Assembly (NCBI GenBank): GCA_965261735.1
Contig: OZ253470.1
Span: 4,416,001-4,480,000, forward strand
Direction of reading: 5' to 3'
DNA from: Alphaproteobacteria bacterium
GTDB taxonomy: Bacteria > Pseudomonadota > Alphaproteobacteria > SHVV01
Length of the DNA stretch: 64,000 nt
Shown here: in pieces, positions 8,131 through 60,757 of the stretch
How the letters are laid out: every line of letters starts with the position of its first letter
How positions within the stretch are numbered: the first letter of the stretch is position 1
Made by a program: the position numbers and the translations under genes
The notes under the pieces: model-generated
What the model was told of the DNA's origin: nothing
Seen by the model: only the letters and a program-made list of their open reading frames with translations
Databases searched by the model: none

Positions 8131-9515
8131 TCGAAAGTGGTGGAAATTTGAGGATGGCGTAATCTCCGGGTGACAAGACAACCACCCAATCGGCGGCTAG
8201 CACCGCCAAGGAGATCACGCCATGAAGAACACTACCGAGACTTCCGCGCTTTCGCTACTGGCCAATGACGCCGGCTATGATCCGCTCGAGGACCGGCTGC
8301 GGGAGAACATCAGATCCACGATCGAGGCCGTTTTTGAGGAGGAACTTGCGCAGTTTCTCGGGCGCTGCCGATACGGTCGAGAGGACGCGCTTCGGCAAGG
8401 GTATCGGAACGGGCACCGGGAGCGGCAACTGACGGGGACATTCGGGACCGAGAGGGTGAGCGTGCCGCGTGCGCGGATCGTTGAGGAAGACGGTCGGGCG
8501 TCGGAATGGCGTTCGCGGGCGCTGCCGCGCTACCAGCGGCTGACCAGAAAGGCCGAGGCGCTGATCGCTTCGGTGTATCTGTCCGGAACCAACACGCGGC
8601 GGGTGAAACGCGCGCTGTTCGGGCTCTTCCGGGGTGCTGTGAGCAAGGACGTTGTGAGCCGGGCGTGGCGCAAGGTGAAGGTCGATTGGGACGCCTGGTG
8701 CAGCCGTGGCCTCGCGGATGAGGATATCGTTCGGCTGATCCTTGACGGCACTGTGATCAAGATCCGACTGGACCGCAAGGCCACCAACATCTCGGTTCTC
8801 GCGGCTATAGGGGTGCGCCGGGATGGCCAGAAGGTCTTGCTTTCGATCGGGAATATGGGCGGAGAAAGCCAGGCGGCGTGGCGCCAGTTCCTCGACGACC
8901 TTGATGCGCGTGGACTGAAACGGCCCGGGTTTGTCATCGTCGATGGCGCGCCGGGACTGGAGGCGGCTCTGTCGGCGCTTTGGGGCGATGACCTTCCCGT
9001 TCAACGCTGCACCGTGCACAAGCACCGCAACCTTCTGGGTCATGCTCCCAAACACATGCATGACGAGCTGAGCGAAGATTACCGCGATATGATCTATGCC
9101 GACACTGCCTCCGAGGTGGAAACCCGCCGCAAGGTGTTTGTCCGCAAGTGGCGGCTGAAATGCAGGGCCGTCGCGGACAGCCTCGCAGAAGCGGGCGACA
9201 AGCTCTTTACCTTCACGCGCCTGTCCAAGAGCCAATGGAAATCAGCCCGAACGACCAACGCCATTGAGCGTCTCAACGAGGAGTTCAAGCGCCGGATCAA
9301 AACACAGACCGTGCTGCCGTGTCCCGAAACAGTGCCGATGCTCCTCTGGGCGCTCCTCGCTTCCGGCCAAATCCAGATGCGCAAAGTCGATGGATGGGAA
9401 ACCCTCGATCAGCTAATCGCCGACGAAACCCTTGACCGCGCGGCCTGACCGCCGCAAAACTCAACCCGCTCGGAGAGGCGCCAAAACCAATTTCCACCAC
9501 TTTCGAGACACAACC
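8131..9515 (+). mobile_element. IS256-family element copy 1 (first 9 bp of left end missing)
   Basis: TIR GG(C/T)TGTGTCTCGAAAGTGGTGGAAATT complete at the right end, truncated at the left. Confidence 0.9.
8222..9448 (+). CDS. IS256-family (mutator-type) DDE transposase
   Basis: GYRNG, LILDG, VIVDGAPGL, QRCTVHK, RTTNAIERLNEEFKRR motifs; 408 aa. Confidence 0.95.
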   Translation: MKNTTETSALSLLANDAGYDPLEDRLRENIRSTIEAVFEEELAQFLGRCRYGREDALRQGYRNGHRERQLTGTFGTERVSVPRARIVEEDGRASEWRSRALPRYQRLTRKAEALIASVYLSGTNTRRVKRALFGLFRGAVSKDVVSRAWRKVKVDWDAWCSRGLADEDIVRLILDGTVIKIRLDRKATNISVLAAIGVRRDGQKVLLSIGNMGGESQAAWRQFLDDLDARGLKRPGFVIVDGAPGLEAALSALWGDDLPVQRCTVHKHRNLLGHAPKHMHDELSEDYRDMIYADTASEVETRRKVFVRKWRLKCRAVADSLAEAGDKLFTFTRLSKSQWKSARTTNAIERLNEEFKRRIKTQTVLPCPETVPMLLWALLASGQIQMRKVDGWETLDQLIADETLDRAA

Positions 9516-31316: not shown

Positions 31317-31595
31317 CCGCCGCAGGCATTATCAGGTTAACTGATTGTGGGCGATTTTCGGCATTTTCCATGATGCTAAGCCATTGAAATTGCGTAAAGC
31401 CGTCGACAATTTACCAAAATTTCGGAGTGAATCCGGTTAACTTCACAAAGCCCCTAGAAGACTGGTTCAGGGACTCGATAGTCGAGCGCTGGCGCGACGG
31501 CACTGCGCTTGCTCCCCGATTGTGCCTGCGAGATTGAGGCGTGCGGCACAGACTTAGGCACTCATCGGCAACCAGAGATTTTGGAGAACATGAAA

Positions 31596-34690: not shown

Positions 34691-36084
34691 GGCTGTGTCT
34701 CGAAAGTGGTGGAAATTTGAGGATGGCGTAATCTCCGGGTGACAAGACAACCACCCAATCGGCGGCTAGCACCGCCAAGGAGATCACGCCATGAAGAACA
34801 CTACCGAGACTTCCGCGCTTTCGCTACTGGCCAATGACGCCGGCTATGATCCGCTCGAGGACCGGCTGCGGGAGAACATCAGATCCACGATCGAGGCCGT
34901 TTTTGAGGAGGAACTTGCGCAGTTTCTCGGGCGCTGCCGATACGGTCGAGAGGACGCGCTTCGGCAAGGGTATCGGAACGGGCACCGGGAGCGGCAACTG
35001 ACGGGGACATTCGGGACCGAGAGGGTGAGCGTGCCGCGTGCGCGGATCGTTGAGGAAGACGGTCGGGCGTCGGAATGGCGTTCGCGGGCGCTGCCGCGCT
35101 ACCAGCGGCTGACCAGAAAGGCCGAGGCGCTGATCGCTTCGGTGTATCTGTCCGGAACCAACACGCGGCGGGTGAAACGCGCGCTGTTCGGGCTCTTCCG
35201 GGGTGCTGTGAGCAAGGACGTTGTGAGCCGGGCGTGGCGCAAGGTGAAGGTCGATTGGGACGCCTGGTGCAGCCGTGGCCTCGCGGATGAGGATATCGTT
35301 CGGCTGATCCTTGACGGCACTGTGATCAAGACCCGACTGGACCGCAAGGCCACCAACATCTCGGTTCTCGCGGCTATAGGGGTGCGCCGGGATGGCCAGA
35401 AGGTCTTGCTTTCGATCGGGAATATGGGCGGAGAAAGCCAGGCGGCGTGGCGCCAGTTCCTCGACGACCTTGATGCGCGTGGACTGAAACGGCCCGGGTT
35501 TGTCATCGTCGATGGCGCGCCGGGACTGGAGGCGGCTCTGTCGGCGCTTTGGGGCGATGACCTTCCCGTTCAACGCTGCACCGTGCACAAGCACCGCAAC
35601 CTTCTGGGTCATGCTCCCAAACACATGCATGACGAGCTGAGCGAAGATTACCGCGATATGATCTATGCCGACACTGCCTCCGAGGTGGAAACCCGCCGCA
35701 AGGCGTTTGTCCGCAAGTGGCGGCTGAAATGCAGGGCCGTCGCGGACAGCCTCGCAGAAGCGGGCGACAAGCTCTTTACCTTCACGCGCCTGTCCAAGAG
35801 CCAATGGAAATCAGCCCGAACGACCAACGCCATTGAGCGTCTCAACGAGGAGTTCAAGCGCCGGATCAAAACACAGACCGTGCTGCCGTGTCCCGAAACA
35901 GTGCCGATGCTCCTCTGGGCACTCCTCGCTTCCGGCCAAATCCAGATGCGCAAAGTCGATGGATGGGAAACCCTCGATCAGCTAATCGCCGACGAAACCC
36001 TTGACCGCGCAGCCTGACCGCCGCAAAACTCAACCCGCTCGGAGAGGCGCCAAAACCAATTTCCACCACTTTCGAGACACAACC
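34691..36084 (+). mobile_element. IS256 copy 3, complete
   Basis: Both TIRs; 8-bp target duplication CGAAAGAC (34683-34690, 36085-36092). Confidence 0.95.
34791..36017 (+). CDS. IS256-family transposase
   Basis: 408 aa, differs from 8222-9448 at two residues. Confidence 0.95.
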   Translation: MKNTTETSALSLLANDAGYDPLEDRLRENIRSTIEAVFEEELAQFLGRCRYGREDALRQGYRNGHRERQLTGTFGTERVSVPRARIVEEDGRASEWRSRALPRYQRLTRKAEALIASVYLSGTNTRRVKRALFGLFRGAVSKDVVSRAWRKVKVDWDAWCSRGLADEDIVRLILDGTVIKTRLDRKATNISVLAAIGVRRDGQKVLLSIGNMGGESQAAWRQFLDDLDARGLKRPGFVIVDGAPGLEAALSALWGDDLPVQRCTVHKHRNLLGHAPKHMHDELSEDYRDMIYADTASEVETRRKAFVRKWRLKCRAVADSLAEAGDKLFTFTRLSKSQWKSARTTNAIERLNEEFKRRIKTQTVLPCPETVPMLLWALLASGQIQMRKVDGWETLDQLIADETLDRAA

Positions 36085-36501
36085 CGAAAGACCAAGTTGC
36101 CGCTGAAACTGCACGGCGGACATGCCGGGCGTCTGACTGGCGACCAGATAAGCGGCCCAGAACCAGACGTTCAGCGGAGTGTGGCTACGCTCCATCACTG
36201 TTCCCACCGTCAGCCCGGTGTTCTGGCGGCACTTGCGGCAGCGCAGGACGCCAGGGCGGTTTTCAAAGTGGAACGGCTCTCCCGCCGTGCCGCAGTGCGG
36301 GCAGGCAAAGCCGTCTCCCCAGCGGGCTTTCTCCAGGTAGGCGGCGCAGGCCGCATCATCGGGGAAAAGTCGCTGGAACTCGGGTAGCGAATGCGGGAAT
36401 GGGAGATCGGCGCGGTCGAGAACATCCATGGCGCGCTCCCCTACATCCGGGTTGCGCCCATTCTAGCCCTAGTGGGTGTGGGTGTAAACAGGATAGGCAA
36501 G

Positions 36502-36948
36502 GTCCGTTGGTCCGTTGTTTGGCGGCGAGATCAAGCGGCGGCGGGTCGACCTGCGCAACTGGTCGAACTGGCGCTGGCATCTTGATGAGGTGTCCGTCCG
36601 CATCAACGGCGAGCCACATTATCTATGGCGCTCGGTTGATCACGAAGGAGAGGTGCTCGAGGTCTTGCCACGAAACGGCGGGATCGCAGGGCTGCGCACA
36701 AGTTCCTGAGGCGCGCCATGAAACGTTATGGCCGGCTACAGTCCATCGTCACGGACAGGCTTCGGTTATATCGGGCGGCGTTGAAGGTGATCGGCAACGA
36801 GGTTTGTCAAGAGACCGGGCGTTGGCTCAACAATCGGGCCGAGAACTCGCACCAGCCGTTCAGACGACGAGAACGCGCAACGGCCAAATTCAGGGACGCA
36901 AAGACCCTGCAGAAATTCATTGCTGTCCATACCTCGATCCACAACCAA
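36502..36948 (+). pseudogene. IS6-family transposase fragment (frameshifted)
   Basis: WHLDEV, LWRSVDHEGEVL, IVTD, NNRAENSHQPFRRRER. Confidence 0.85.
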
Positions 36949-38274
36949 GACCGCCTGACCCGGTCCTTGGCCGACTTCGCACGCATGATCGAGATCTTCG
37001 ATCGCCGCCGGGTCAGCTTCGTCAGCGTCACCCAGGCCTTCAACACCACGACCAGCATGGGCCGCCTGACACTGAACGTGCTCTTGTCCTTCGCCCAGTT
37101 CGAGCGCGAGGTGACGGGCGAGCGCATCCGCGACAAGATCGCGGCCTCCAAGGCCAAGGGCATGTGGATGGGCGGCACTGTGCCGCTTGGCTACGACCCG
37201 CCTGGGGATGGCACGCGCGCCCTGGCGGTCAACCAGGAGGAGGCCGAGATCGTGCGCACCATCTTCCGAGCCTATATCGACCTCGGCTCGGTGCACGCGC
37301 TGCAGCGATGGCTTGAGGACCGGGGCATCCGTTCGAAGCGGCGGGTGACGCGGGCGGGTCGACTATCCGGCGGCCGACCGTTCAGCCGCGGCGCGCTCTT
37401 TCAACTGCTGCGCAACAGAGTCTATCGCGGCCTGATCGTCCACAAGGGGAGGGTGCATCCGGGCCGGCACCAGGCCATCATCGATGCCGATCTCTTCGAG
37501 GCTGTCCAGGCGCGCCTCGATGCGAACACTCGCCGTCGCGCATCGAAGCTGGAGCAGAAGTTGAATGCCCCTCTGGCCGGGCGCCTCTTCGATGCGGATG
37601 GTCGGCCGATGTCGCCGACCTTCTCCCACGGGAGAGGCGGCAAGCTCTATCGCTACTACGTCTCGGCACCGCTTCAGCAAGGTGCAAGGCGCGATCCGTC
37701 CGACACAGCCATCCGGCGTATCTCCGCACCATCGCTCGAAGTCGCCCTCGCGGCTGCGCTGCGTCGCGTGATCCCGGGATGTCCGGTTGATCCCATCACG
37801 CTTGTTGTCCGCGCCGAGCTCCACGATCAGTCGCTGCACTGCTTGCTGCCGATCGACCGGGTCGTCGCGATGCGCGAGCGCCTCGAGCCCCACGAACGGG
37901 TCGAGCCGGATCCAGTGGATGCGCGCCTCGCCAGGCTGCATCTGCCCCTGGTCCGGCGTCGCGGTCAGACCTGGGTTCTTAAGGGCCAAAGTCCGGGACA
38001 CATGCCGGACCCGGTTCTGGTCAGGGCGCTCCGCTCCGCTCACGCCATGCTGCACTATGACGATGACGGGCTGCCGGCACTCACTGCAGTACCCGATACG
38101 CCCCATCGACGCCGGCTCGTCCGCCTGGCCTTTCTGGCGCCAGAGATCCAGCGGGCGATCGTTGAAGGTCGCCAATCCGCAGGCCTGACACTGTCACGGC
38201 TCCTCAAGGGCCCGATGCCGCTCGACTGGTCGCAGCAAGCCGCCCGCTTCCCGTTTGCGGCATCGCCGGAATAG
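36949..38274 (+). pseudogene. Large serine recombinase lacking the catalytic N-terminus
   Basis: DRLTRS, SFAQFEREVTGERIRDKIAASKAKGMWMGG, GRHQAII, YRYYVS. Confidence 0.88.
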
Positions 38275-38353
38275 GGATCGGCACGGGAAAGTTTGTAAGG
38301 CATTGATATTACGGGAGGCTCTCGGTTTATTGGTTGGAAAACCCGCAATATTC

Positions 38354-38782
38354 TCCCTGTTTTGAGGCCGAAATCGCAAAAATTCCCTGTTTCCGCCAAA
38401 CTCACCCTTGCATCGCGCTCGCGGAGACCGCACACCGCGAAGCCCGGTAATTGCCGGAAATGCTCCCGCGTTCAGGAGCTGCGAATTCCGATTGACCGCG
38501 AAACAGGCCCTGTTTTCCGTGGGTTGGCCGCGCCATGCGATGAAGAGACTGCCTCGCCGGGGTGGCTGGCTGTGCAGGCAGTCTCCCGCGAACTCGTCTC
38601 TGAGGCCAATTCCCTGCTTAACAGGGAAAATACAGGGAAATTTTCTCTTTTGCAGGGATTCAGAAGCTTTCCTGTGTTTAAAACATGGCAGAAACGCTAG
38701 TGTTTTCGGTCCAATTCCCTAAACCATGTAACAGGGAATTTATTTGAACGAACAGGGATTTTGTTCGGGAGAACAGGGAATT
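38354..38782. repeat. Cluster of direct and inverted (A)ACAGGGA(A/T) motifs
   Basis: Copies at 38354, 38381, 38608, 38713 (inverted) and 38620, 38631, 38652, 38730, 38751, 38772 (direct). Confidence 0.8.
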
Positions 38783-38992
38783 CTACTGGTCCACGGCGGC
38801 AGCCGAAACATGACCGCGCCCGGCGCCGGCGCCGGGTCGATGTGGTTCATGAGTTGGCGGGAGCCTGAGGCCGCTTGGTTGTGGGTCTTGCAGGTCCGAC
38901 CCAGTTAGTCTGATGGTATGGACGCCCCCTACGGCTTCACGATGAGCCATACTGGAGTGTGTTGAACAACCCAGACAGAGGGAGCGTCCACG

Positions 38993-40012
38993 ATGGATAT
39001 TACGACAATTGGGTTTGATCTGGCAAAGACGGTGTTCCAGGTTCACGGTGCTGATGGTGAGGGACGACCGGTACTACGGCGGAAGCTGCGCCGCGGGAAG
39101 GTGCTGGCGTTCTTCGCCGGATTGCCATCCTGTCTTGTCGGTATGGAAGCCTGTGCCTCTGCGCACTATTGGGCTCGGGAACTGCAAGCACACGGGCACA
39201 AAGTTCAGCTGATTCCGCCTCAATACGTTCGTCCCTTCGTCAAAACGAATAAGAACGACGCAGCGGATGCGGAAGCGATCTGTGAGGCAGTGACGCGTCC
39301 GACGATGCGCTTTGCACCGGCGAAAAGCGCCGAGCAGCAGTCGGTTCTGATGCTGCACCGGGCCCGAGAGCTGTTGGTCCGTCAACGCACGATGGTGATC
39401 AATGCGCTGCGCGGCCACTGTGCGGAGTTCGGACTGATCGTCGCTCAGGGGGCGTCGAAGGTGGAGGAACTGGTTGCCATTATCGAAGATCCCGGCGATG
39501 TGCGACTGCCGCCTCTGGCACGCGAGGCGCTTGGCTCTCTGGTTGAGCAGCTCCGCTCTGCTCAGGCCCGGATCAAGCAGCTGGAAGTGACGCTTTTGGC
39601 ATGGCACCGCTCCAACGAGGCGAACCGCCGTCTTGCGACGATCCCCGGCGTCGGTGTCATCACCGCGACGGCGCTGGTCGCGACGATCGGAGATGGCGCG
39701 CAGTTTCGCTCGGGCCGGCAGCTCTCGGCCTGGCTCGGTCTCGTGCCCCGACAACACTCGAGTGGCGGCAAGGACAGGCTGGGGCGGATCTCGAAGCGCG
39801 GGGATGGCTATATCAGGCGCTTGCTCGTGCATGGTGCGCGAAGCGTGCTGCGCTGGCGCCGCGCCAAGCCGGGCACGGGGCCTGGCTGGACCGACCGGCT
39901 CCTGGCGCGGCGGCCGACAAACGTCGTGCTGGTCGCCATGGCCAATAAGACAGCCCGCGTCGCCTGGGCACTGCTCAGATACGAGCGTATCTACCGACCG
40001 ACGCCCGCCTGA
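38993..40012 (+). CDS. IS110-family recombinase (DEDD + Tnp20)
   Basis: GFDLAK, GMEAC, KNDAADAEAI, GLVPRQHSSGGK. Confidence 0.95.
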   Translation: MDITTIGFDLAKTVFQVHGADGEGRPVLRRKLRRGKVLAFFAGLPSCLVGMEACASAHYWARELQAHGHKVQLIPPQYVRPFVKTNKNDAADAEAICEAVTRPTMRFAPAKSAEQQSVLMLHRARELLVRQRTMVINALRGHCAEFGLIVAQGASKVEELVAIIEDPGDVRLPPLAREALGSLVEQLRSAQARIKQLEVTLLAWHRSNEANRRLATIPGVGVITATALVATIGDGAQFRSGRQLSAWLGLVPRQHSSGGKDRLGRISKRGDGYIRRLLVHGARSVLRWRRAKPGTGPGWTDRLLARRPTNVVLVAMANKTARVAWALLRYERIYRPTPA

Positions 40013-40182
40013 CCAGCTGGAAAGCGGATACAAACTTAAGAAGGTAACGACGATTTGATGGCGAAACAGGGCTCCACCCGAGATCGGCCAAACCCGAGGC
40101 ATTGTCAGAGCTTTGAGCTCGTTAATCTGACTGGGCGTCGATCTTTCGGATTCCATCAAGGCCAGCGGTCAGCGTACCGCAG
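40013..40182 (+). ncRNA. Predicted bridge/seek RNA of element A (3'-truncated)
   Basis: GTTAATCTGA (40121-40130) matches left flank GTTAGTCTGA (38904-38913); CCATC is complementary to the element end GATGG. Confidence 0.6.
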
Positions 40183-40328
40183 AGAGCGGAACCTTGTGGC
40201 TGGTTATGGTGCCGTTTACGGTTTCCTTGCTCATCTATGAGGGCTTCTTGCTGATCCGCGGAGCCAAATAAGGACTTGTCTAGTCATGTATATAAGCCCC
40301 AAATTAAATACCGACCTGGAGGGGAGAG

Positions 40329-50189: not shown

Positions 50190-50663
50190 CTGACAGCCTG
50201 TTCCTCGCGAGGCCGAATGGGGAATGCGGGGGAGGCTAGGGAGGTTCTGATGCAACCGATTTCGGGGCCGCGGCCCAAGTCCTGGTTAATTGTGTTGAGC
50301 CTGATGACCGTCCCACTGTTCGCGATGGTCTGCGCTTCCGATGCGCGCGCCGACACGCCAGTAGAGGTCGAGCAGGAAGTCGCCGAGGAAGCGGAGGTCG
50401 AGGTCGGGCCATCGGCCAGTGCTACGACCACACCGCTTATCCCCCGCAAGCTCCTGTTCGGCAACCCGGACAAGATAAACGTTCAGATCAGCCCGGACGG
50501 GCGTTTCCTGAGCTACGCCGCCCCGGTGGACGGGGTGCTCAACGTCTGGGTGGGGCCGGTGGACGACCCGGCGGCGGCCCGGCCCGTCACCCGGGACACG
50601 TTCGGGGGAATCGGCAACTACTTCTGGGCCGACGCCAGCGATCACATCGTGTGTGGACGCCCC

Positions 50664-50916
50664 CGTTGATGCAAGCAGTTTTTGGTCGGCTCGGTGCATG
50701 CGGTCAGGTGCTGTCGTGTGTCCGGCCTCTCTATGCGGCAGATGACACGCCGCGGGCCCGTATGGAGATACGCGGATTGGGTCCAAATCGGTTACGCGAG
50801 CTTGAAAGCTCTCCGTTCGGATGCTGGTTTTCCCAACCCGGTCTCGTTGACCTTTGCCCTTACCTGTCCTCCGTCGTGCCCACATCCCCGACGGCTTCCC
50901 GCACTTCGCCGTTCTC
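50664..50916 (-). ncRNA. Predicted bridge/seek RNA of element B
   Basis: Contains GTAACCGAT identical to the target flank and ACACACGA identical to the predicted donor junction. Confidence 0.7.
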
Positions 50917-51939
50917 TCAGGCGGTGGCGGGAGCCCGGTAGCTCTCCTTCTTCGTCAGTAGCGCCCAGACGATGCGCGCCATCCTGTTGGCCAGCGCCAC
51001 CGCGACGAGCATCCTCGGCTTGCGCGCCAGCATCCCGGCCAGCCAGGGGTCCGTCGTCACGCCGCGCCGAACCGCCCAGCGGACCACAGTCATCGCGCCT
51101 GTGATCAGCAGCCGTCTCAGATCGCGCTGGCCCATCTTCGATATCTTGCCCAGCTTCGGCTTGCCGCCGGTCGTGTGCTGGCGCGGCACGAGGCCGAGCC
51201 AAGCGGAGAAGTCGCGGCCGCGCCGGAAACTCTCCATCGGCGGTGCGAAGGCCTGGATTGCCATCGCGCTGATCGGCCCGATCCCCGGCACGCTCATCAG
51301 GCGCCTCGCCTCCTCATCCTGCCGTGCTCTCACGTGGACCTCCCTCTCCAGGCCCGCAATCTTCGCATCGAGGCCGGCGATCTGCTCAAGCAGAAGGCCG
51401 GCCAGCTCGCGGACCGCTTCCGGCAACCTCGAAGCCGGTCCCTCAAGCGCCGAGGCCAGCCGGCCGACATGAGCCGGCCCCTGCGGGGCAATGACACCGA
51501 ACTCCGCTAGATGGCCGCGCAGCGCATTAATCGTCTGGGTGCGCTGGCGCACCAGAAGATCGCGCGTCCGGAACAGCATGCCCCGAGCCTGCTGTTCCTC
51601 CGTCTTCACAGCCACAAAGCGCATGGTCGGCCGCGACGACGCCTCGCAGATCGCCTCCGCATCCGACGCGTCGTTCTTTTGCCGCTTGACGTACGCTTTG
51701 ACGTAGATCGGTGGGACCAGTCGCACCGCATGGCCGAGACTGCCGATCTCCCGGCCCCAATGGTGCGCGCCGCCGCACGCCTCCATCGCCACCGTGCAGC
51801 GTGGCTGCGCAGCCACAAAGTCCAACAGCTTCGCCCGGCTCAGCTTCTTGCGGAACGCAACCGACCCATCCGCCCGCGCACCGTGCAGCTGAAAGCTGTT
51901 CTTCGCCAGATCGATCCCGATCATGTGAACCTGTTCCAT
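50917..51939 (-). CDS. IS110-family recombinase
   Basis: GIDLAK, AMEAC, KNDASDAEAI, GLVPRQHTTGGK. Confidence 0.95.
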   Translation of the reverse strand: MEQVHMIGIDLAKNSFQLHGARADGSVAFRKKLSRAKLLDFVAAQPRCTVAMEACGGAHHWGREIGSLGHAVRLVPPIYVKAYVKRQKNDASDAEAICEASSRPTMRFVAVKTEEQQARGMLFRTRDLLVRQRTQTINALRGHLAEFGVIAPQGPAHVGRLASALEGPASRLPEAVRELAGLLLEQIAGLDAKIAGLEREVHVRARQDEEARRLMSVPGIGPISAMAIQAFAPPMESFRRGRDFSAWLGLVPRQHTTGGKPKLGKISKMGQRDLRRLLITGAMTVVRWAVRRGVTTDPWLAGMLARKPRMLVAVALANRMARIVWALLTKKESYRAPATA

Positions 51940-53899
51940 GGACGCCCCCTTCCTCGCTTGGCGTTAACAACACCGCCAACCTGGCACATCGCGATGCCGT
52001 CGGGAGGGGCGTCCACCCCATCGGTTACCTCATGGACTGGCAAGGCGACGAGAACGCGCATCTCTATTCCGTCGAATTGGATACCGGCGCGATCTGGGAC
52101 TTGACCCCAATGGTCGGCGCGCGTGCGGTCATCGTGGGGAGCAGCCCCAAGTTCCCCAACGAGCTGCTTGTGGGTCTGAACGGCCGCGACCCCCGATACA
52201 ACGATATCTATCGGATCAACGTCAGAACCGGGGAAAGGCGGCTGGTGCAGGTGAACGACCAGTTCGCCGGCTTCCTCATCGATGACGATTTCAACATTCG
52301 CTTCGCCAGCCGTCCCACCAAGGACGGGGGCAGCGAACTGCTGCGCTCCACCGCTGGCGGCGGCTGGGAGTCGTTTATCAAATTCCCGCTGGAAGATATC
52401 GAGACCAGCAAGATCTTCGGGTTCGACCGGACGGGGCGGGTCCTGTATCTGGCGGACAACCGGGGGCGGGATACCTCCGCCCTTACCGCCTTCAACCTGG
52501 ACACCGGGGAACAGACCGTCATCGCTGCCGACGCCAGGGCCGATGTGCACGGCGTGATGGCGCACCCTACCGAAAGGACCCTCCAGGCCGTCGACTTCAT
52601 CTATGAACGCAGGGAGTACCGCATTTTGGACGACTCCATCGCCCCCGAAATGGAGTACTTGCGAACGGTGGCCGTTGGCGACTTTCAGGTTATCAGCCGC
52701 ACCCTGGACGACAGCCGCTGGATCGTGGTCTACCCGGTGGATGACGGGCCGGCGCGCTACTACAGCTATGACCGGGCCAGGAAAGAGGCGACGTTCCTGT
52801 TCACGCACGCGAAAGAGTTGGAGGGGCTACCGCTGGCCAAATTGCACTCGGTCGTTATCAAGTCGCGCGACGGGCTGGACCTGGTGGGTTACTACATGCT
52901 GCCGGTGGAGAGCGACAAGGATGGCTCGGGGCGTCCGGACCATCCCTTACCGATGGTATTGCATGTGCATGGCGGCCCCCATGAGCGGGTAGAGTGGAAC
53001 TATTGTCCGTTGTGCCAACTCCTGGCCAACCGGGACTACGCCGTGTTGACCGTAAACTTCCGGGGCTCTACCGGGTTCGGCAAGGCGTTCGTCAACGCCG
53101 CCAACCTGGAGTGGGGCGGCAAGATGCACGACGACCTGATCGACGCCGTGCAGTGGGCCATCGAGCAGGGGATCGCCGACCCGCAACGGGTGGCGATTTA
53201 TGGGGCCAGCTACGGCGGCTACGCCACTCTGGTGGGCCTGACCCTTACCCCGGACACCTTCGCCTGCGGCGTGGACATCGTCGGCCCTTCGAACCTGGTT
53301 ACCCTGCTCAGCAGCATTCCACCGTACTGGGAGCCGGCGATCGAGCGGATGGTCCGTCAGATCGGCGACCACCGCACCGAGGCGGGCCGGGCCTTCCTGA
53401 CCGAGCGTTCCCCGCTTACGCACGTCGAACGCATCAGCAAGCCCCTGCTCATCGGCCACGGCGCCCATGATCCTCGGGTCAAGCAAGCCGAGGCGGAGCA
53501 AATCGTCCGGGCCATGCTGGACAGGAACCTCCCGGTCACTGCCGTCCTCTATCCCGACGAAGGGCACGGCTTCAATCGGCCCGAAAACACACTCTCCTTC
53601 CTGGCAGTAGCGGAAGCCTTCCTGGCCGAGTGTTTGGGAGGACGGCACGAACCGGTGGGGGACGACTTCGCGGGCTCGTCCATCATCGTGCCGGTCGGGG
53701 CGGAGCATATTCCAGGCCTCGTGGAAGCCCTCGAATAGCGACCGGTGGCAAGACGTGATTGGGCGAGAAACGCGGCGCTTGCCCCACGGCTTCGCAATGG
53801 AAGACGGGTCGGTCTCCGTTGCGCGGCAGCTCACCGCTTGTGCCGTCCTGCCCGGTGTCATAATCCGGAGGCCAGGGCTCTCGCGTCTACGCGTGGATC

Positions 53900-54126: not shown

Positions 54127-54929
54127 GGCATTGACACGTTAAGTCGGTGGCCGGATCGGGCAGGGGCCGCTACCGTCGGCGTATGACGCCAATTTCTTTC
54201 AAGCGACATCGTTTTTCGCCAGAGATCATCCAGCATGCGGTCTGGCTCTATGCTCGGTTCACGCTGTCATTTCGCGATGTCGAGGACCTGCTGGCCGAGC
54301 GCGGTATCGATGTCTCGAACGAGACGGTGCGACGCTGGTTTCTGAAATTCGGGCGCCTGATCTCAGGCAATCTTCGCCGCAGCCGTCCACGTGCCAGTGC
54401 TCGTTGGCACCTTGACGAAATGGTCATCAGGATCCGCGGCCGAAGACATTGGCTGTGGCGGGCGGTCGACGACGAAGGTGAAGTTCTCGACTTCCTGGTC
54501 CAGCCACGACGCTGCGCCCGATCGGCGCAGAGGTTGCTGCGGAAGCTGCTGAAGAAGCAGGGCTTTGCGCCGAAGCGCATTACCACGGACAAGCTCAAAT
54601 CCTACGCTGTTGCGATCCGCAAAGAGCGACTTACCGCTATTCACGATCAGGGATTGCGGGCGAACAATCGAGCCGAGAATTCACACCAGCCGGTACGTCG
54701 ACGCGAACGAAAACAACAGCGGTTCAATTCACCGGGATCCGCCCAACGGTTCCTTTCAATCCACGCCGCCGTCTACAACGCTTTCTACGTCCAGCGCCAT
54801 CTTTTACCCCGCCGCATTTTCAAGGCGTTTCGAGCCGAGACGTTCGCTGTCTGGAACCAAGGCTGGTGTGCTGCCTGATCCAGATCACGATCCAATTGTG
54901 CCGAACGCGGCAGTTAACGTGTCAATGCC
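54127..54929 (+). mobile_element. IS6-family element, complete (transposase 54183-54878)
   Basis: Perfect 16-bp TIR GGCATTGACACGTTAA; WHLDEM, TTDK, NNRAENSH. Confidence 0.93.
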
Positions 54930-58256: not shown

Positions 58257-59062
58257 GGCATTGTCACGTTAACAGCGTGGCTTCGGCACGGCCGGTGCTT
58301 TAGCATCTCTGGATGTGCAAGATATCCTACCGTCGTCACCGCTTTCCACCGGTCATCATCCAGCATGCCGTCTGGCTCTATTGCCGTTTCACGCTGAGCT
58401 ATCGGGACGTTGATGACCTGCTTGCCGAGCGTGGTCTCGACATCTCGTATGAGACAGTTCGAAGATGGGTCTTGAAATTCGGTCGGGCCTATGCGCGGCG
58501 GATTCAACGTCGGCGGCCACGACCGACCGAACGCTGGCACCTGGACGAGATGGTCGTCGTAATTCGAGGGAGGCAGTTCTATCTCTGGCGTGCCGTGGAC
58601 AGTGAGGGCGAAGTCCTGGATTTCCTGGTTCAATCCCGCAGGAACGCTCGGGCGGCAATTCGGCTGATGCGGAAACTCTTGAAGAAGCAGGGCTTCGCGC
58701 CGGCGACGATTGTAACCGATAAACTCCGCTCCTACGGCACCGCGATCCGTTTGCTTGCCCTCTCGGCTCAGCATGAGCAAGGCCTGCGAAAGAACAATCG
58801 GGCAGAAAATTCACATCAGCCGGTGCGACGACGAGAGCGAAAGATGCAGCGGTTCAAATCGCCCGCGTCCGCGCAGCGGTTCCTCGCCGTCCATGCGACC
58901 GTCTACAACCTCTTCAACGTCCAACGCCATCTGGTCTCCCGCCGAACACTCCGCCAATTCCGCGGCGACGCGATGAGACAGTGGCGGCAAGTGACGACCG
59001 TTGCATAATCTCCGGCGTCGGCGCCCACAAGCTGGTTACACGGTGGTTAACGTGACAACGCC
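58257..59062 (+). mobile_element. IS6-family element, complete (transposase 58313-59008)
   Basis: TIR GGC(A/G)TTGTCACGTTAAC; WHLDEM, VTDK, NNRAENSH. Confidence 0.93.
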
Positions 59063-60225: not shown

Positions 60226-60757
60226 TCATCTTTCCGCAAGCTGGCCCCGAAGTGAATTGATCGTCTGCGTGCGTTGGCGGACAAGCAGCGCGCGGGTGCG
60301 GAACAGCATTGCATCCGCCTGCGCTTCTTCCGACTTCACTGCCACGAACCGCATGGTGGGGCGCTGTGCCGCCTCGACGATCGCGGCCGCGTCGTTACTG
60401 TCATTCTTCTGCCGTTTCAGGAATGGCTTGACATAGATCGGCGGGATCAGCTTGCACGTGTGGCCAAGAGCGAGAATCTGTCGACCCCAGTAATGCGCGC
60501 CGCCGCAGGCCTCCATCACAACCAGGCACGGCGGCGCTTCGGAGAGGAATACAAGGAACTTTTCTCGCGAAAGCTTTTTGCCGAACACCGGCTTGCCTTC
60601 CGCCGTTGCCCCATGGAGTTGGAAACTCCTCTTTGATATATCGATGCCAATGATGTTAATCCGGTCCACGGACGCCTCCTTCGTTGATCGAACGCACCCC
60701 ACGTGCGTTCCTTCCTGGCGCTTATGACGCCGTCAGATGGGGGCGTTCACCCCATCG
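60226..60757 (-). mobile_element. IS110-family element C, 5' part only (GTG start 60669)
   Basis: GIDISK, MEAC, KNDSNDAAAI; left end CGATGGG-GTGAACGCCCC. Confidence 0.88.

Follow-up and report, generated by a model that had tools for sequence, protein, structure and literature searches.

The closest described systems are insertion sequences whose transposases work with a non-coding RNA encoded in the element itself. In ISEc11, ISPa11, ISKpn4 and ISPst6 (Siddiquee et al. 2024, PMC11187229), a transposase of around 340 residues (339 in ISEc11) is accompanied by sub-terminal repeats and a long downstream non-coding region from which a seekRNA derives. For IS1111-type elements, that paper describes a pattern in which this downstream region holds a match to the top strand of the target 5' of a match to the bottom strand, the two matches overlapping, and in which both short (70-100 nt) and long (145-170 nt) forms of the RNA occur. 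The bridge RNA of IS621 (Durrant et al. 2024, PMC11208160; Hiraizumi et al. 2024, PMC11208158) has a target loop and a donor loop, each reading both strands around a shared crossover dinucleotide, and serves a DEDD recombinase; the former paper predicts bridge RNAs for 93% of IS1111 elements, in their right end. Here we describe element A, an insertion sequence at positions 38913..40182 of a 64-kb window (the whole stretch of DNA analyzed, positions 4416001-4480000 of the 5.03-Mb single-contig genome of an alphaproteobacterium, contig OZ253470.1).

Element A resembles the ISEc11 group in the size of its transposase, its sub-terminal repeats, its long downstream non-coding region and its overlapping target matches with the top-strand match on the 5' side. 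The RNA scaffold of 154-161 nt found here is also close to the long RNA form of that group (PMC11187229). In contrast, the guides of A and its target, an IS6-type terminal repeat, differ from those of the ISEc11 group, and A is known here from sequence alone. With IS621, element A shares the DEDD recombinase and a target and a donor module that both read the two strands around a common dinucleotide. IS621 differs in having its RNA upstream, at the left end, in the reversed order of its strand matches and in inverted repeats of 2-3 bp; this comparison is one of layout, the transposases not having been aligned.

Our reading is that element A is an IS1111-group element carrying, downstream of its gene, a seekRNA or bridge RNA of ~155 nt with a target and a donor module, and that the window copy is truncated and recombinant. 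We put the probability of this reading at roughly 0.9.

Element A and its downstream RNA region

The features of the window copy, with guides and RNA modules as predicted, are as follows.

38913..40182, + strand: element A, window copy; IS1111-group insertion sequence cut on its 3' side, 1270 of 1354 bp
38993..40012, + strand: transposase gene of A; 339 residues, intact, with DEDD (RuvC-like) and Transposase_20 domains
38904..38912, + strand: left half of the A target; GTTAGTC and crossover dinucleotide TG, the inner part of an IS6-type terminal inverted repeat
38916..38929, + strand: left sub-terminal inverted repeat of A, GTATGGACGCCCCC; partner GGGGGCGTCCATAC only in intact copies
40080..40145, + strand: target-binding module of the A RNA; stem 40080-40088/40137-40145, then 40093-40096/40132-40135, with a loop holding both guides and the small hairpin
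40098..40107, + strand: 5' target guide GGCATTGTCA; exact reverse complement of TGACAATGCC (crossover dinucleotide and right target half)
40108..40120, + strand: small hairpin GAGCTTTGAGCTC between the two target guides; no other exact copy in the window
40121..40130, + strand: 3' target guide GTTAATCTGA; same sense as the left target half, TG and the first element base
40150..40158, + strand: 5' donor guide ATTCCATCA; near reverse complement of the left-end start with the crossover dinucleotide (TGATGGTAT)
40160..40182, + strand: 5' strand, inner stem and loop of the donor hairpin (GGCC A GCGG ... CCGC AG); the break follows directly

Element A is a member of the IS1111 group of the IS110 family. 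Its transposase matched the Pfam families PF01548 (DEDD_Tnp_IS110, 6.8e-14) and PF02371 (Transposase_20, 3.1e-28) and scored 352.9 bits against the NCBIfam model NF033542, "IS110 family RNA-guided transposase", which has a cut-off of 140. At 339 residues the protein lies within the 330-350 expected for the IS1111 group. Residues D9, E52, D89 and D92 were invariant across the transposases of five related elements in this genome (A to E, below) and, by reference to the published motif, probably constitute the catalytic DEDD tetrad. The motif GL-P----S/TG is likewise present, as GLVPRQHSSG in A and GLVPRQHTTG in B.

The genome contains 12 left ends and 10 right ends of A, and six uninterrupted copies of 1354-1355 bp. 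Intact copies have sub-terminal inverted repeats of the IS1111 type (7-17 bp, with short extensions beyond), of which the window copy keeps the left one alone. They also show the IS1111 layout of non-coding regions, with 80 bp upstream of the gene (38913-38992) and ~250 bp downstream. The element begins with ATGG and ends with ...ATACA, after which comes TG.

The left flank of the window copy, GTTAGTCTGA at 38904-38913, is matched by the 3' target guide GTTAATCTGA at 9 of 10 positions. This match had been noted in a previous reading of the stretch made from the letters alone (the sequence-only reading), and flank, hairpin and guide all lie where it had put them; the segment CCATCAAGGCCAGCGGTCAGCGTACCGCAG, too, extends to 40182 as it stated. 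With at most one mismatch allowed, GTTAGTCTGA occurs three times in the window against 1.16 expected (both strands, 64 kb). The corresponding expectation for a 170-nt non-coding stretch is ~0.0015 (arithmetic from 1.16 per window), and the match is unlikely to have arisen by chance, though not decisive alone. The 3' guide of the sequence-only reading is thus real, but a second, 5' guide, GGCATTGTCA, had been overlooked on the other side of the small hairpin.

At nine of the ten A right ends the right flank matched ACAATGCC at 7-8 of 8 positions, the tenth end adjoining another A copy, and every A left flank ended in TG. The target of A is therefore GTTAGTC-TG-ACAATGCC, written out GTTAGTCTGACAATGCC, with strand exchange at TG, and it is at this dinucleotide that the two target guides of A overlap. 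Downstream of the gene, two segments match the target on opposite strands; they overlap at the crossover, and the one for the top strand lies 5' of the other, as in seekRNAs and bridge RNAs. The genome also has empty target sites, of the form GTTAnnnTG-ACAATGCC. One of them, ...GTTAACTTGACAATGCC at 338858, is part of the repeat family that also provides the left flank of the A copy at 1963848. Contigs from four public runs pass from that left flank directly into CAATGCC (CAAAGCC in one run).

In the proposed mechanism the DEDD transposase would work with an RNA of ~155 nt (seekRNA or bridge RNA) encoded just 3' of its gene. In the first module, the 5' guide would pair with the top strand of the target over the crossover dinucleotide and the right half, and the 3' guide with the bottom strand over the left half and the crossover dinucleotide; the guides would overlap at the dinucleotide of strand exchange, TG in A and CG in B. 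The second module, of the same layout, would read the joined element ends, that is, the right-end tail, the crossover dinucleotide and the left-end start. The sequences analyzed here show the anatomy of the element, the covariation of guides with flanks and ends, that of the RNA structure, the truncation and the mosaic. Production of the RNA, its binding to the transposase and its part in directing recombination we infer from published work on relatives.

Two further observations concern the ends. Immediately upstream of the start codon (38980-38990 in A; 51951-51941 in B) lies a near-copy of the complement of the element's own left inverted repeat, GGGAGCGTCCA in A and GGGGGCGTCCA in B; in read-through transcripts these sequences could fold onto the left end and cover the ribosome-binding site. 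At the right end of A, as read by eye, TTGCAA is followed after 17 nt by CATGAT, which extends across the joined ends; this arrangement would fit the junction promoter described for the family (PMC12288879).

Covariation of guides with flanks and element ends

The genome holds five distinct elements, A to E, with transposases 48-53% identical to that of A. Their RNA regions align, and each carries its own guides and flanks.

A: 3' guide GTTAGTCTGA; left flank GTTAGTCTGA; crossover TG
B: 3' guide GCGTAACCGA; left flank AGGTAACCGA; crossover CG
C: 3' guide GCAAAAATGA; left flank GCAAAAATGA; crossover TG
D: 3' guide GCAAAATTGA; left flank CCAAAATTGA; crossover TG
E: 3' guide ACAGGGTAAA; left flank GAAGGGCAAA; crossover AA

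The 5' guides complement the right flanks, CCGAACGG for CCGTTCGG in B and CGTGGTACA for TGTACCACG in C. Element B, of which the genome has 14 full copies at >99% identity, is also present in the window, where its left flank reads AGGTAACCG.

50648..52030, - strand: element B with flanking target; transposase gene 51939-50917, 340 residues, 51% identical to that of A
50863-50706, - strand: B RNA; 5' guide CCGAACGG at 50820-50813, hairpin at 50811-50798, 3' guide GCGTAACCGA at 50797-50788

A covariance model, R1, was built from the five elements A to E; A was represented in it by an intact copy, the window copy being left out. In the window it gave exactly two matches, to B (50863-50706, minus strand, 155.6 bits) and to A (40057-40219, 72.3 bits). 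The model placed GUUAAUCUGA of A and GCGUAACCGA of B at the same positions, directly 3' of the small hairpin, so that the common scaffold position proposed for the two guides in the sequence-only reading holds under structural alignment.

Eighty related loci with transposases 52-97% identical were taken from other genomes. R1 gave 89 matches in a search of 84 sources; in 81 of these sources, a full match that could be used lay directly behind the transposase gene. Element ends were set from the inverted repeats without reference to the target guides, by a rule that favors ATG/TTG starts and equal crossover dinucleotides. Ends could be defined in this way in 70 of the 81 loci (L072, L051, L029, L017, L076, L034, L033, L086, L050, L074 and L080 were dropped). 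Over these 70 loci, the 3' guide matched the left flank and crossover dinucleotide at a mean of 6.54 of 9 positions, compared with 3.74 for the guides of other elements, and the complement of the 5' guide matched the crossover dinucleotide and right flank at a mean of 7.30 of 9, compared with 3.84. When each of the 36 guide types was represented once, 376 of 504 positions matched, against 209.8 (standard deviation 9.7) after shuffling, and none of 5000 shuffles reached 376. In L016, a locus from A's own clade with a 77% identical transposase, guide and flank both read GTTAATGTG, a match at 9 of 9 positions. Guides thus change with the target among related elements, which is natural re-direction of insertion.

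The scaffold itself covaries. Among 82 distinct aligned rows, standard pairs made up 94.2% of cells. The figure was 80.2% for shuffled rows and 27.6-42.5% when the partners were slid. Changes on both sides were seen in 22 of 25 pairs, and in the small hairpin (helix 3) in all 4. Folds of the single A and B RNAs were only weakly better than those of shuffled sequences (z = -1.69 and -1.95), and the support for the predicted structure comes from covariation, not from such folds. Four outermost pairs proposed by RNAalifold (columns 21-24/99-102) were dropped; they would bury the 5' donor guide and are broken in 2 of 5 sequences. A permissive Rfam scan of the B non-coding region gave a chance-level match alone (gut-2, E = 6.4).

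Three lines of evidence support RNA-programmed insertion by a guide that varies with the target but keeps its place in the scaffold: the five elements of this genome, the 70 loci with their 36 guide types and the compensatory base-pair changes in the scaffold. The sequence-only reading had argued in this direction from A and B, and the homologs bear it out.

The second module repeats the layout of the first: a GGCC/GCGG hairpin stands between a 5' and a 3' segment. The 3' donor segment reads ATACATGA in A, ACACACGA in B, ACAGATGA in C and D, and ATACAAA in E. Across the loci, the 3' donor guide equaled the last five right-end bases and the crossover dinucleotide at 7 of 7 positions in 60 of 70, the rare dinucleotides AA, AG and CG included, and at 6 of 7 in 9. 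Reduced to 17 end types, 107 of 119 positions matched against 75.5 after shuffling, and none of 5000 shuffles reached 107. The 5' donor guide fitted the left-end start at 4-7 of 7 positions, mostly 5-6. Part of the RNA is thus complementary to the joined element ends, strongly for the 3' guide and more weakly for the 5' guide, suggesting that the second module is a donor-binding loop in the sense in which Durrant et al. (PMC11208160) use the term. The long-form RNA, whose role the ISEc11 work left open (PMC11187229), would then have a second half that follows the element ends.

An alternative is that the first module alone guides, as a short seekRNA, and that the second is a protein-binding scaffold or processing signal, in which case the truncation of the window copy would matter through the right inverted repeat only. 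For ISEc11 an 82-nt short RNA sufficed (PMC11187229), and the fit of the 5' donor guide is moderate; the 17 types of right-end tail are also few. Such a module would nevertheless have to account for a 3' donor guide that follows tail and dinucleotide as closely as described above and for the donor-complementary loops in IS1111 elements reported in PMC11208160. We therefore regard guidance by the first module alone as improbable.

Several observations weigh against our reading of element A. Compared with the guide of the A1 lineage of copies (defined below) over a 9-mer, the 12 A left ends scored 9, 9, 9, 8, 8, 8, 7, 7, 6, 5, 4 and 3 of 9, and the right flanks of 5 of the 14 B copies, the window copy included, are unrelated to the 5' guide. 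The rule for finding ends failed in 11 of 81 loci, which were left out, and the 5' donor guide fits loosely, as noted. The alignment behind the pair counts was fitted to the model, which favors the structure, with the slid controls nevertheless far lower. No Rfam family reached its gathering score in the window. The RNA region is covered by contigs from RNA libraries, but contigs cannot prove transcription; one such contig is deeper over the RNA region (61 vs 18.6), a difference not usable as evidence. No circle junction was found among the public-run contigs compared with an intact A copy.

The poorly matching left flanks of several copies, and the weakness of a single 10-mer match taken alone, might suggest that the 9/10 match reflects chance or shared ancestry, that the protein alone picks the target and that the downstream region is a terminator or structured untranslated region. 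Guides and flanks covary over 36 guide types to a degree that no shuffle reproduced, however, and the second guide matches the other flank on the other strand. In experiments on relatives, moreover, the RNA was needed, as PMC11187229 reports. We consider an explanation by chance or by the protein alone very unlikely.

Other observations concern B, C and a further relative. The right flank of the window B copy (50641-50647) is ATGTGAT, where the 5' guide would expect TTCGG; misfitting B right flanks could reflect exchange of flanks through recombination between copies, of which the mosaic A copy described below is an example. The four copies of C (L011 and those at 3422170, 4173330 and 4347627 of the genome) all have ~40 bp in common on their left side and ~60 bp on their right, suggesting either that C sits in repeated sequence or that it is longer than assumed. 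At 60226-60702 (minus strand) lies a 158-residue N-terminal fragment of a further IS110-family transposase, 57% identical to that of A over residues 3-145; R1 found no RNA match beside it.

The IS6-type target of element A

The left flanks of A insertions fall into families of conserved sequence, and divergence between flanks begins directly after ACAATGCC. The window itself contains an element whose ends resemble this target.

58257..59062, + strand: IS6-family element; PF13610 (9e-38), NF033587 (231.8 bits); 17-bp repeats GGCATTGTCACGTTAAC and GTTAACGTGACAACGCC, both ends unoccupied

This element has a DDE transposase between short terminal inverted repeats and a length of ~0.8 kb, as is characteristic of IS6 elements. 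Its repeats agree with the consensus target of A at 14/17 and 13/17 positions, respectively (own count). Elements of ~132 bp with GGCATTGTCAAGTTAAC-type repeats at their ends are also present in the genome. One of them is the site of the A copy at 1963848, and unoccupied relatives occur at 338858 and at 31325-31341 of the window. The repeat that flanks the window A copy on its left (38352-38913) ends in sequence of the same kind; no open reading frame (ORF) within it had a Pfam match. The target of element A is thus the terminal inverted repeat of IS6-type elements and of their small derivatives.

In this genome the outermost 10 bp of IS6-type repeats have exactly the sequence of the 5' guide GGCATTGTCA, and one might suppose that the target-matching segments of A are a captured piece of such a repeat and not guides. 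A captured piece would hardly present the two halves of the target in swapped order and on opposite strands, with a conserved hairpin between them and an overlap at the crossover dinucleotide, nor would the same layout recur in B to E and in at least 30 other guide types with quite different targets. Capture of an IS6-type repeat is accordingly an explanation to which we give scarcely any credence.

The preference of A for the ends of another mobile element has a counterpart. Work by Partridge and Hall from 2003 reportedly found that IS4321 and IS5075, of the IS1111 group, insert into the 38-bp terminal repeats of Tn21-family transposons. Like these, element A is an IS1111-type element with the terminal inverted repeat of another mobile element as its specific target. 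Its hosts differ, being IS6-type insertion sequences and ~132-bp derivatives, not Tn21-family transposons. A literature search found neither later structures of IS1111 seekRNAs nor IS1111 elements targeting IS6 ends beyond the papers cited here; most subscription journals lay outside its reach, and the supplementary tables of PMC11187229 and PMC11208160 may list such elements.

The IS6-related surroundings of the window copy were also recorded. Two IS6-family elements of ~0.8 kb occur in the window (54127-54929 and 58257-59062), with repeats of the GGCATTGACA... and GGCATTGTCA... types. Inside the repeat into which A inserted, AACAGGGAA(T/A)TT recurs at least nine times within 38340-38800, facing either way; three of the copies form a tandem series with a spacing of 21 bp (38730-38792). 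The array resembles iterons or protein-binding arrays. At 36718-38274 a single open frame joins the C-terminal part of an IS6 transposase (residues 3-78) to a large serine recombinase. The fused recombinase lacks the start of its catalytic domain, and the recombinase part, 36949-38284, is repeated four times in the genome.

A truncated and mosaic window copy

The other A copies in the genome continue beyond the equivalent of 40182 for 83 shared bases that end in GGGGGCGTCCATACATGA and contain GGGGGCGTCCATAC, the inverted partner of GTATGGACGCCCCC at 38916-38929. Beyond 40182 the window copy runs into unrelated DNA.

40183..40300, + strand: foreign DNA at the break; last 118 bp of a ~445-bp repeat-bounded element, full copy at 377173-377621 of the genome

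The ~445-bp element has 24-bp inverted repeats (GGGGCTTATATACATGACTAGACA) and one small ORF that, by eye, resembles a membrane protein; the remnant that begins at 40301 reads like the first ORF of an IS3-type element. At 40182, then, two truncated elements abut, and the boundary is therefore a deletion or rearrangement junction. With this event the window copy lost one side of the GGCC stem of its donor hairpin (the 3' strand), together with the 3' donor guide and the right inverted repeat. The sequence-only reading had supposed the donor guide and the right inverted repeat to be deleted after ~40182, which is correct for the right repeat and the 3' donor guide; the 5' donor guide is still in place at 40150-40158. 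It had also supposed the copy to be immobile. The window copy has no right end and therefore cannot be excised, as it seems safe to infer, in agreement with that supposition. That it is instead a complete short variant is almost certainly wrong: many BLAST matches do stop at the same query position, but this shared stop is merely where the window copy diverges, all other copies of both A lineages as well as L014 and L015 continue through the 83 shared bases to the right inverted repeat, and the DNA after 40182 is the tail of another repeat.

The window copy was compared in 100-nt bins with the other A copies, which fall into the lineages A1 and A2, the latter represented by the copy at 1989066 and by L014 and L015 from other genomes.

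38913..39612, + strand: A1 part of the mosaic; 0-3 differences per 100 nt from five A1 copies, 4-23 from A2
39713..40182, + strand: A2 part of the mosaic; 0-3 differences per bin from 1989066, L014 and L015, mostly 4-15 from A1 (1 in 39813-39912)

The left end and ~700 bp are thus of the A1 type and the 3' third, taking in the whole RNA region, of the A2 type. The crossover between them lies inside the gene at 39613-39712, and the ORF remains open. The hairpin GAGCTTTGAGCTC and guide GTTAATCTGA of the window copy are A2 characters, A1 copies carrying GAGCATCAAGCTC and GTTAGTCTGA in their place, and the A1 guide GTTAGTCTGA matches the window left flank at 10 of 10 positions. Because the copy is a mosaic, its guide did not descend together with its left end and flank. 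The 9/10 match on which the sequence-only reading was built is real, but it reflects two closely related guides and not the pairing of a guide with its own, imperfectly matched flank. Homologous recombination between diverged copies might in this way swap guide modules, providing a natural route to re-targeting, and the truncated copy might act in trans as an immobile helper on A copies or IS6-type ends. The helper idea draws on the intact transposase gene and on the complete target module, which corresponds to the short RNA sufficient for ISEc11. Re-targeting and helper activity together we regard as speculative and rather doubtful.

Insertion sequences crowd the whole genome. A repeat of ~418 bp at 36085-36502 occurs in well over 150 places at 98-100% identity (an estimate from BLAST rows) and is probably a non-autonomous mobile element. 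Two genes for proteins of 408 residues with a Mutator-family transposase domain (PF00872), at 8222-9448 and 34791-36017, are taken to be of the IS256 type.

The mechanism of RNA-guided insertion was already published in 2024 (Durrant 2024; Siddiquee 2024) and is unchanged by element A. What is new here is a second target guide, a donor module in which the break can be placed exactly, a mosaic of A1 and A2, and a target of the IS6 type. For the IS1111 group, the covariation described here gives sequence-level support to a donor-reading role for the second half of the long seekRNA. IS110/IS1111 RNA-guided recombinases are under development as genome-editing tools, and a series of naturally re-targeted guides is raw material for such work. 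This genome alone offers five related scaffolds with different guides, and the 70 loci offer 36 guide types with targets that can be read from their flanks. Element A is, on this evidence, an insertion sequence that specializes on the ends of another family, those of the IS6 type.

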